Below are positions 17,940-26,409 of a DNA stretch of 64,000 bases, in pieces (the stretch's first letter is position 1; every line of letters begins with the position of its first letter). Below the pieces are notes generated by a model that saw only the letters and a list, made by a program, of their open reading frames with translations, searched no databases and was not told the DNA's origin. Position numbers and translations under genes: made by a program. This DNA comes from Candidatus Fraserbacteria bacterium (GTDB lineage: Bacteria > Bipolaricaulota > Bipolaricaulia > RBG-16-55-9). The stretch covers positions 18,546-82,545 of the forward strand of contig JBBIOR010000005.1 in the NCBI GenBank assembly GCA_037443265.1. Direction: 5' to 3'.

Positions 17940-18053
17940 TCACCCCTGACGCTGCTTGTGCTTGGGGTTCTTGCAGATCACCATGACCCGCCCCCCACGG
18001 CGGACGATCTGGCAGTGATCGCACATCTTCCTCACAGAGCTTCGCACTTTCAT
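17940..18053 (-). CDS. rpmJ: 50S ribosomal protein L36 (Zn-binding)
   Basis: Hand-translated [37 protein letters not shown]; below ORF-track cutoff. Confidence 0.97.
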
Positions 18054-18056
18054 CGC

Positions 18057-18275
18057 TTATCCCTCACGATAGACGATCCGGCCTCGCTGGAGATCATACG
18101 GGGAGAACTCCACTACTACGGTGTCTCCCGGCAGGATTTTAATATAATTCTTCCGCATCCTTCCAGAGACGTGGCAGAGGGCCTCTCGTCCATCCTCCAG
18201 CCGGACTTTGAAGGTCGAGCCGGGATACGCCTCGATCACTTCGCCCTGCTTGCGGATGAACTCCCCTTTGCCGAT
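18057..18275 (-). CDS. infA: Translation initiation factor IF-1, probable ATC start
   Basis: SGRMRKNYIKILPGD...SPYDLQRGRI; extending to ATC at 18275 gives 72 aa with a G-rich SD. Confidence 0.93.
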   Translation of the reverse strand: MGKGEFIRKQGEVIEAYPGSTFKVRLEDGREALCHVSGRMRKNYIKILPGDTVVVEFSPYDLQRGRIVYREG

Positions 18276-18295
18276 AGTCTCCCCCCCCTTTTTTT

Positions 18296-19063
18296 TTACG
18301 AGCAGCCCCAGACAGCGGTGAGGATCTCCGGCTCGCCCCCGGTGATGAGGACCATCTCCTCCACGTGGGCCGCGGGTCGCCCATTGGGGGTGAGCACCGT
18401 CCAGCCGTCCTCTGCCACCCGCTCCTCTTCTGCTCCGGTGGACTTCCAGACCATCGGCTCGATCGCCAGGACCATCCCTTCTACGAGCTTCGCTCCTCGG
18501 CCCGGCACCCCATAATTGGGCACCTGCGGCTCCTCGTGCATCGAGCGGCCGATCCCATGGCCTACGAATCGCTTCACGACTTGATAGCCCCTGGACTCCA
18601 CATAGGAGCCGATCGCGTGCGCAATATCCCCCACGCGATGGCCAGCCAGGGCCTGAGCGATCCCCTGCCTGAGGGCCTCCCGCGCTACGCCTACGAGCTC
18701 CAGAGCCTCCGGCGAAGGCCGCCCGATAATGACAGTGTCGGCCTTGTCCGCATAGAGCCCTCGGCGCTCAATCCCAATATCAATCGAGAGCACATCGCCC
18801 TCGTGCAACACGCGATCAGGCCGGGGGATCCCGTGGACGATCTCGTCGTTGATGGACGTGCAGATCGATGCGGGAAACCCGCGATAGCCCTTGAAGGCGG
18901 AGGCGACCCCGGCCTCGTCCATGAGCTCCTCCGCCAGTTCATTGAGCTCGCCGGTGGAGACCCCCGGCTGAGAGGCACGGATCAGCGCTCTTAGAATCTC
19001 ATTCAAGATCCGCGCGTTCTCCCTCAAAAGCTCGATCTCACTCTCTGTCTTTAGCTGTATCAT
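18296..19063 (-). CDS. map: Methionine aminopeptidase
   Basis: SINDEIVHGIP, GHGIG, HEEPQV, AIEPM. Confidence 0.96.
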   Translation of the reverse strand: MIQLKTESEIELLRENARILNEILRALIRASQPGVSTGELNELAEELMDEAGVASAFKGYRGFPASICTSINDEIVHGIPRPDRVLHEGDVLSIDIGIERRGLYADKADTVIIGRPSPEALELVGVAREALRQGIAQALAGHRVGDIAHAIGSYVESRGYQVVKRFVGHGIGRSMHEEPQVPNYGVPGRGAKLVEGMVLAIEPMVWKSTGAEEERVAEDGWTVLTPNGRPAAHVEEMVLITGGEPEILTAVWGCS

Positions 19064-25114: not shown

Positions 25115-25317
25115 CAGCGTCCACCTGCCTTAAGCTCTCGCTCTCTTAGGACAGTGAGGACCCGGGCGATGTCCTTCTTCGTCTCCTTGAGGGCCGCGGT
25201 GTTCTCCTGCTGGCCGGTGGCGATCTGAAAGCGCAGCGTAAAGAGCTTCCTCTTGAGCTCCGCTTCCTTCTGGCGCAGCTCTTCTTCGGTGAGATCGCGC
25301 AGCTCCTTGGCTTTCAT
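25114..25317 (-). CDS. rpmC: 50S ribosomal protein L29
   Basis: [20 protein letters not shown]. Confidence 0.95.
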
Positions 25318-25745
25318 AGCTCGCCTCCCAGCTTGAGCCTCTCCCTAAGCCTTGTTCGAATGGGAAGCTTATGGTCGACGGCCTGCTGGATCTCTTCCGC
25401 CTGGGCGCGGGTGACCCCGCTGATCTCAAAGAGGATCCGCCCGGGCTTGACCACAGCCACATAATGATCCACATCTCCCTTGCCCTTACCCATACGGGTC
25501 TCCGCGGGCTTCTTCGTCACGGGCTTATCCGGAAAGATACGGACCCAGATCTTGGAGTTGCGCTCCATCATCCGGACCATGGCCTGCCGGCAGGCCTCAA
25601 TTTGTCTATCGGTGATCCAAGCGGGCTCAAGCGCCTGGATGCCAAATTCTCCAAAGGCCACTTCACTTCCGGCCAGGGCCAGGCCCTTGCGCCGACCGCG
25701 ATGAGTCTTGCGAAATTTCGTCCGCTTAGGAGCCAGCAGCGCCAA
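25314..25745 (-). CDS. rplP: 50S ribosomal protein L16
   Basis: [18 protein letters not shown] start at 25745 after GAGGTGAG. Confidence 0.95.
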
Positions 25746-26409
25746 CGGCCTCACCTCGCTTCTCCACCGGTAGCGCCCGCCGCGGCAACTGCTCCCCACG
25801 AAAGAGCCAGACTTTGATGCCAATGGGGCCATACTTCGTCCAGGCCTCGGTGAACCCGTAATCGATGTCGGCCCGGATCGTCTGCAGCGGCACCCGGCCC
25901 TGTTTAATTTCAATCGAACGGGCGATCTCCGCGCCGCCCAGCCGGCCGCTGCAACGAATCTTGACCCCTTTGGCTCCGCGCTCCATCACCCGGCCGATCA
26001 CTTCCTTCATGGCCCTCTGAATGGGAAAACGGTTCTCCACCCGATAGGCCACCTCTTCCGCCACCAGGATCGCCTCGAGATCCGGAGCCTCAACTTCTTT
26101 GATAGAGATCTTCACCTTGCGGCCGAGCTTCTCCTCCAGCTCCTTCTGGAACTGATCGATCTCAGCCCCGCCCTTTCCAATTAAGATGCCGGGCCGAGCC
26201 GTACGGATCACAATCGAGACTCGATCCTCCGTGGGCCGCTCCAGATTGATCTCCGCAATGCCTGCGCCCTTGTAGCGCGCGCAGATCCATTGGCGAATCT
26301 TCTGATCCTCTAGTAAATATTCAGGGGCCTTCTTCTCATGGAACCAGTTCGACTTCCACTTCTGAGTGATCCCGAGTCGAAACCCCAGCGGATGGGTCTT
26401 CTGTCCCAT
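25726..26409 (-). CDS. rpsC: 30S ribosomal protein S3
   Basis: [27 protein letters not shown]. Confidence 0.97.

Follow-up and report, generated by a model that had tools for sequence, protein, structure and literature searches.

An AUC codon as the probable start of infA in a Candidatus Fraserbacteria bacterium, conserved as AUC or AUU in two related families

In the window, as the whole analysed stretch of 64,000 nucleotides is called here, the infA gene, which encodes translation initiation factor IF1, is very probably translated from an AUC codon (18275-18273, minus strand), judging from comparison of its sequence with those of its relatives. This codon occupies the position of the first methionine of IF1, it is conserved as ATC or ATT (ATY) among orthologues, purifying selection sets in at it, and an alternative start is absent. 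The explanation as a whole, in which AUC is the start codon, has been kept by selection and renders infA sensitive to IF3 and IF1, is on balance favoured.

Feedback through the start codon is a textbook mechanism for IF3, and the regulation of IF1 is poorly understood. To our knowledge, such feedback has been regarded as special to infC, and infA of Escherichia coli has, as far as we know, been described as not autoregulated.

Results

Location of infA and of its start codon

The infA gene lies in a secY-adk-map-infA-rpmJ-rpsM cluster, the usual position of IF1 genes. The features of the locus are as follows.

18057..18275, minus strand: infA coding sequence (IF1), 72 codons plus stop, 99.3 bits on TIGR00008
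18273..18275, minus strand: ATC, inferred start codon of infA, which the initiator tRNA would read as fMet; corresponds to Met1 of solved IF1, and is ATC or ATT in 23/23 clade orthologues
18279..18290, minus strand: purine-rich Shine-Dalgarno sequence AAGGGGGGGGAG, between the map stop and the infA start
18237..18239, minus strand: GTG, codon 13 of infA and first canonical start, rejected; profile positions 1-11 would be lost, and GTG is present in 15/22 orthologues
18296..19063, minus strand: map, type I methionine aminopeptidase, upstream gene, 287.8 bits on TIGR00500
17940..18053, minus strand: rpmJ, ribosomal protein L36, downstream gene with an ATG start, 72.7 bits on TIGR01022

The stop codon of map (TAA, 18298-18296, minus strand) is situated 20 nt 5′ of the infA ATC. 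Read on the minus strand, the spacer consists of a run of nine A followed by eight G residues (18297-18281), then AGACT and the ATC at 18275-18273. The codons after ATC are GGC AAA GGG GAG TTC ATC CGC AAG CAG GGC GAA and GTG (18239-18237); the stop codon TAA occupies 18059-18057, and rpmJ begins at 18053. No stop interrupts the frame for 164 codons 5′ of the ATC, a distance that reaches into map and contains no ATG, GTG or TTG; the first such codon in frame is codon 13. The initial annotation had placed the start at ATC 18275 behind a G-rich Shine-Dalgarno sequence, with no in-frame ATG, GTG or TTG at the N-terminus, and had noted that the first standard start, GTG 18239, would remove 12 residues. 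All of this was borne out: the Shine-Dalgarno sequence is the purine-rich run at 18279..18290, canonical starts are missing both from the 164 upstream codons and before codon 13, and initiation at GTG would leave a product of 60 aa.

The 72-aa product scored 99.3 bits against the TIGR00008 equivalog profile (cut-off 61.15) and covered positions 2-68 of its 69 positions, while the 60-aa GTG form covered positions 12-68 only. Residues 2-70 could be aligned without a gap with residues 2-70 of the solved 72-residue IF1 2n3s_A, so that the ATC falls exactly at the position of Met1, in agreement with the gapless N-terminus of a 72-aa product claimed initially. Twelve IF1 sequences of the PDB matched the product at E < 1e-10. 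By family membership, the product is taken to be bacterial IF1, which would bind the 30S A site and support initiation.

Single-sequence folding of the infA leader was weaker than that of its shuffles (z = +1.62), and no conserved RNA structure around the start was predicted by RNAalifold, which returned 0 pairs for 22 sequences. The homopolymeric A9G8 run of the map-infA spacer (18281-18297) was observed only in the source genome, the relatives having ordinary GGAGG-type spacers. A length error in this run would alter only the spacing of the Shine-Dalgarno sequence and no reading frame.

Read support had been proposed in the initial annotation as a check; independent sequence support was obtained from a hot-spring contig of an independent run (X2, 569 nt, depth 4.7). 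This contig spans 17900-18292 and differs from the window at 24 sites, none of which lies at 18273-18275. It also carries a 9-nt insertion in the infA-rpmJ spacer (window position 18055). A further contig (X1), identical to the window and probably its source, was left out as independent evidence.

Within the 30-gene ribosomal cluster of the window, infA was the only gene without a canonical start at its profile N-terminus. The start of rplP is TTG. The longest-ORF call of this gene (25314-25913, minus strand, 199 aa, TTG at 25913) overruns the end of rpsC, and its real start is most likely a TTG near 25740, about 5 nt past GAGGTGA.

Conservation of the ATY start and onset of selection

Orthologues, defined as the gene between map and rpmJ, were collected from 40 relatives of the source genome (1.69 Mb, 44 contigs, 88% complete, Candidatus Bipolaricaulota) and from 150 sampled genomes of the class. 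At 6/6 loci of family f1, to which the window belongs, and at 17/17 loci of family f5, ATC or ATT stands opposite the infA ATC in the alignment; f1 and f5 are two related families of Candidatus Bipolaricaulota/Fraserbacteria. Alignment of infA 5′ ends across relatives, another check suggested at the outset, thus gave ATC or ATT in 23/23 cases and no ATG within these two families. Thirteen of the 22 distinct ATY orthologues carried ATT and nine ATC; one more locus (L014) has ATC one codon further upstream.

A GGAGG- or GAGGTGA-type motif was located a few nucleotides 5′ of ATY in all orthologues of the clade. In 13/22 orthologues no canonical start was present in frame between the upstream stop and ATY. 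The upstream in-frame stop lay only 1-7 codons before ATY in 10/22, leaving ATY as the only near-cognate codon there. In-frame GTG or TTG codons occurred upstream in 9/22 orthologues; these were 7-29 codons away, ahead of the Shine-Dalgarno sequence, and unconserved. Across the 22 orthologues, pN/pS was 0.21 over codons 2-12, 0.16 over codons 13-71 and 0.94 over the 11 in-frame codons upstream. Codon 13 was GTG in 15 orthologues and GTT, GTA or GTC in the other seven. The onset of selection and the variability of codon 13 together indicate that translation begins at or immediately around ATY, and not at codon 13.

When the five f5 genomes G018, G020, G021, G022 and G029 (87-93% complete) were tested with the TIGR00008 HMM, the ATY gene was the only IF1 gene in every one of them, and it must therefore be functional. 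It is scarcely credible that infA is a 60-residue IF1 starting at GTG 18239, that the ATC is an assembly error or that the gene is decaying. GTG 18239 is indeed the first canonical start, and 60-aa versions have been produced by the gene callers of public databases (P0013, P0016). As a start of infA, GTG 18239 was nevertheless ruled out by purifying selection on codons 2-12, by the loss of GTG from codon 13 in 7/22 orthologues and by the 11 profile positions that the 60-aa form lacks; error and decay are contradicted by ATY in 23 independently assembled genomes and in the independent hot-spring contig, and by its gene being the sole IF1 gene in 5/5 genomes. The ATY of infA is neither an error nor a local oddity.

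In a tree of IF1 genes, which rests on only 72 columns, the 23 ATY genes formed one clade (ultrafast bootstrap/SH-aLRT 100/96), and the canonical-start family f3 was the next branch. With pS at 0.65-0.74, synonymous divergence within the ATY clade approached saturation; codon 1 ended in C or in T, with changes between the two, and in no case in G. These sequences are best read as showing that AUY arose once, in the common ancestor of f1 and f5, and was then maintained by selection. As the members of the clade are kin and not independent, the argument is one from maintenance and not from 23 independent events. ATA was also absent (0/22 orthologues) from the internal Ile codon 7 of infA, so its absence from codon 1 is uninformative, and only the absence of ATG is telling.

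The map-infA operon arrangement was common to all 23 clade loci. This arrangement, together with the map stop 20 nt 5′ of the ATC, would also suit re-initiation, in which ribosomes finishing map restart 20 nt downstream, the identity of the codon matters little and ATG drifted neutrally to ATY. Such a course of events is very improbable. Among relatives, between about 20 and about 100 nt separate the end of map from ATY, and every one of them has kept a strong Shine-Dalgarno sequence; neutral drift at a pS of 0.65-0.74 should have resampled ATG; and an independently derived ATA paralogue, described below, does not lie behind map. Re-initiation is itself lowered by overproduction of IF3 in E. 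coli, according to the portion of PMC2268962 cited here.

In one genome of family f3 (G010), the only infA (L027) reads CAG GTC at the site of GTG GTC in its congener (L026). Neither a canonical nor an AUH start (AUU, AUC or AUA) could be seen at the conserved N-terminus of L027, and the map frame seems to continue past it.

Start codons of infA outside the clade

Outside the clade, no infA gene requiring an AUH start was found among 76 genome loci or 78 metagenome loci; these roughly 150 loci were chosen by peptide patterns and are a non-random sample. The metagenome scan yielded just two further close relatives, its patterns having mostly caught distant phyla, and it was used as a control set only. 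At the 76 genome loci, the aligned codon was ATG in 50, TTG in 11 and GTG in one; the remainder had ATG one codon away (12 loci) or GTG six codons upstream (two loci). Within the class, family f9 showed TTG at 15/16 loci and GTG at one. The start was GTG in families f8, f11, f6 and most of f3, and ATG in f10 and f7. The starts of all these families were read from the sequences; for f8 and f10 an automatic rule for Shine-Dalgarno spacing failed.

A rough filter, which involved no gene prediction, was also applied to about 1630 putative genes of the source genome. It returned 17 genes in which AUH behind a Shine-Dalgarno sequence precedes the first canonical start by 8 codons or more. Ranking by the coding score of the stretch in between put a gene for an HhH-GPD glycosylase and infA in the first two places; infC was also listed. 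An unfiltered scan of the same genome for a Shine-Dalgarno sequence, ATY and a long open frame was uninformative, with 114 strict ATY cases versus 75-233 for control codons, and infA itself escaped its motif rule. The HhH-GPD glycosylase gene (L207 178-840; contig C7 of the source genome, 40477-41139) has a conserved N-terminal stretch of 42 residues without a canonical start. An ATT follows GGAGG by 10 nt, and the same position is ATT in G001 and TTG in G006. This gene is possibly a third AUH-initiated gene of the genome.

Second IF1 genes and an ATA-initiated paralogue

The source genome has a second IF1 gene outside the window (L002 1492-1707, contig C15), which starts with ATG, scores 87.7 bits on TIGR00008 and lies directly 3′ of a gene for a cold-shock protein (L002 1205-1408). 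This pairing was observed at eight loci of family f1 (L002, L190-L194, L205 and L206), and the IF1 paralogues of this family start with ATG, GTG or TTG. In G003, G005, G007, G009 and G011 (L074-L078), map adjoins rpmJ; the infA of the cluster has been lost, and only stand-alone IF1 genes are present.

A stand-alone IF1 paralogue of genus g10 (family f5) showed an ATA start, 7 nt past GGAGG, in 8/8 loci (L197-L204). Its pN/pS was 0.16 for codons 2-12 and 0.85 upstream, and no conserved canonical alternative start was found at the eight loci. These genes scored 88-93 bits on TIGR00008 and formed a clade of their own (99/96) within the paralogue group of the IF1 tree. On this evidence, an AUH start has arisen in IF1 genes a second time, independently, as the ATA of g10. 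All five g10 genomes examined (90-96% complete) contained an ATT copy and an ATA copy as their only full-length IF1 genes, and these organisms appear to be without any canonical-start IF1 gene.

Start codon of infC and initiator tRNA

The infC gene of the source genome scored 180.7 bits on TIGR00168, and its start region reads TAA GGC ATC behind AGGAGGT. Among relatives, infC showed AUH behind a GGAGG motif at 30/30 loci (28 ATC, one ATT and one ATA); at four of these loci, a TTG or ATG in the same frame also lay 6-7 codons 5′ of AUH and overlapped the Shine-Dalgarno sequence. The lineage thus has the infC-type design, which the infA leaders resemble.

ARAGORN detected 40 tRNAs in the source genome (88% complete). 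One of them is a standard initiator, with anticodon CAU and GGG/CCC in the anticodon stem, and another is an ordinary tRNA-Ile(GAU); none of the 40 was an initiator-like tRNA carrying a GAU anticodon. With only the ordinary initiator tRNA(CAU) at hand, decoding of AUC would involve a mismatch at the third position, just as it does at infC.

Treatment of infA in databases

The NCBI-annotated IF-1 protein P0010 is identical with the translation of L016 after residue 1, the ATC having been read as Met. Other gene callers shortened IF1 to 60-66 aa or extended it to 81-102 aa in these genomes. A full-text literature search found no published natural infA initiated by AUU, AUC or AUA; the arXiv survey of Gvozdjak and Samanta was outside its scope. 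As far as could be found, the AUH start of infA has been present silently in the database, apparently undescribed and uninterpreted. It is of a kind already known, namely control of an initiation-factor gene through a non-canonical start codon.

Discussion

Proposed mechanism

In the mechanism proposed here, the ordinary initiator tRNA (CAU) would read the AUC of infA despite the mismatch at the third position, helped by a strong Shine-Dalgarno sequence and an unstructured leader, and the resulting product would be a normal 72-residue IF1. IF3, with support from IF1, would reject start codons of the AUU/AUC type. Because of this rejection, high IF3/IF1 activity per 30S subunit should lower the synthesis of IF1, and low activity should raise it. 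As the infC genes of these genomes start in the same way, both fidelity factors would be balanced by one mechanism.

The biochemistry behind this proposal is that of E. coli. Discrimination of IF3 against non-AUG codons 'with the support of IF1' is described in PMC5499595 (sections 20, 21 and 23). In the E. coli extracts reported there, an engineered AUU-infA mRNA was translated at 0.74 of the AUG level, and an excess of IF3 removed about half of its translation when the extracts came from rich medium and more than 60% when they came from minimal medium. The same mRNA was a poor competitor at 20 °C. According to the same paper, ppGpp preferentially inhibited non-AUG infA mRNAs, which were strongly affected by nutrient limitation (abstract, sections 14-15), and an AUA mRNA matched AUG in activity and showed hardly any sensitivity to IF3.

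By analogy, an AUY-initiated infA is likely to be IF3-sensitive, and would necessarily be so if IF3 works alike in these organisms. A negative loop on IF1 would be plausible because IF1 assists IF3. That the AUC of infA puts IF1 synthesis under start-codon discrimination by IF3 and IF1 is a proposition for and against which the analogy is about evenly balanced, and that feedback on IF1 is the function for which the start was selected may be given an even chance at best. From the E. coli data, infA would be expected to sense IF3 and IF1, and it is on this expectation that feedback depends.

An autoregulatory loop on IF1 analogous to that of infC had been put forward in the initial annotation, and it stands as plausible. 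The infC of the same genome starts with ATC, infA has kept AUY without reversion to ATG at saturating divergence, ATA was gained independently by a paralogue, and the engineered AUU-infA is repressed by IF3. Against the loop, the ATA paralogue does not fit IF3 sensing neatly, given that AUA is barely sensitive in E. coli extracts, and the effect sizes for AUU-infA in the cited sections of PMC5499595 are modest. The TTG, GTG and ATG starts in other families of the class point to a general pressure for weak starts, not to IF3 sensing; because IF3 accepts these three codons as canonical, the shared pressure may be simply for low translation efficiency.

Comparison with known systems

The closest known system is infC of E. 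coli, whose AUU/AUC start is associated with translational autoregulation (Butler et al. 1987; Brombach & Pon 1987, both as cited in PMC9845219; summarized in PMC5499595). Both are initiation-factor genes with a conserved AUH start behind a good Shine-Dalgarno sequence, in both the factor takes part in rejecting such codons, and infC of the source genome has the same design. The gene studied here is, however, infA, and IF1 merely assists IF3 in discrimination. The AUH start of infA is also confined to one clade, whereas AUU/AUC at infC has been described as near-universal. Unlike the autoregulation of E. coli infC, repression of infA by its own product is a proposal.

Chloroplast infA (Hirose et al. 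1999, FEBS Lett, as quoted in PMC9845219) is the same gene and likewise has a weak non-AUG start that limits IF1 synthesis; it differs in its organelle setting and in its UUG codon, which is canonical for IF3 whereas AUC and AUU are not. In pcnB of E. coli, a chromosomal gene mentioned in the introduction of PMC5499595, an AUU start limits translation, but the product is no translation factor and no feedback logic is implied. The engineered AUU, AUA, GUG and UUG variants of E. coli infA mRNA concern the same gene, and their AUU and AUA forms are translated, the AUU form being sensitive to IF3, temperature and ppGpp; they are artificial, natural E. coli infA starting with AUG (PMC5499595). Sections 3, 20, 21 and 23 of that source report no natural AUH-initiated infA.

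Feedback or other roles of a weak start

The main rival to feedback is a fixed throttle, in which AUY is a real start that keeps the production of IF1 at a much lower level than that of the operon's ribosomal proteins, with no meaningful feedback from IF3 and IF1. This is unlikely, though it deserves to be taken seriously. Weak canonical starts of infA elsewhere in the class (TTG at 15/16 f9 loci and GTG in f8) accord with a throttle. So does the chloroplast gene, in which translation rose 300-fold once UUG had been replaced by AUG (Hirose et al. 1999, as quoted in PMC9845219), as do the cases of rare starts merely limiting expression that are mentioned in section 23 of PMC5499595. For mere limitation, though, GTG or TTG would suffice, yet AUY was kept in 23/23 orthologues, and the same type of start is found at infC in 30/30 relatives. 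Moreover, any AUU or AUC start is IF3-sensitive in E. coli, so that some coupling to IF3 would be nearly unavoidable if IF3 acts alike here.

The reported effects of nutrient limitation and ppGpp on non-AUG infA mRNAs and the weakness of AUU at 20 °C (PMC5499595, abstract and sections 14-15) also bear on the idea that AUH starts tune IF1 to nutrient state or temperature (ppGpp, cold) and not to factor levels, paralogues with different starts serving different conditions. The canonical start of the second IF1 gene of f1, just 3′ of the cold-shock-protein gene at eight loci, would suit such a division. This idea is nonetheless improbable: it is a pure analogy with E. coli extracts, and both IF1 genes of g10 have AUH starts, which fits poorly with a split into a regulated and an unregulated copy. 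Feedback through IF3 and IF1 is preferred to either of these alternatives.

A wider reading, tentative and concerning this order of Bipolaricaulota, is that IF1 and IF3 act together as a fidelity homeostat. All genes of both factors would be AUH-started, and their synthesis would read and correct the stringency of start-codon selection. IF1 paralogues with graded starts (AUG behind the cold-shock gene, AUA, and AUU/AUC in the ribosomal operon) would supply IF1 according to condition, some genomes being without a canonical-start IF1 gene.

Significance

For annotation, the consequence is that gene callers of the Prodigal type give truncated or spuriously extended IF1 proteins in these genomes. 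The native AUH leaders of infA can be tested directly, in E. coli or in vitro. IF1 genes that have twice independently come to start with AUH, and have kept such starts over long divergence, constitute a natural experiment, which suggests that the dosage of IF1, too, can be tied to the fidelity of initiation.
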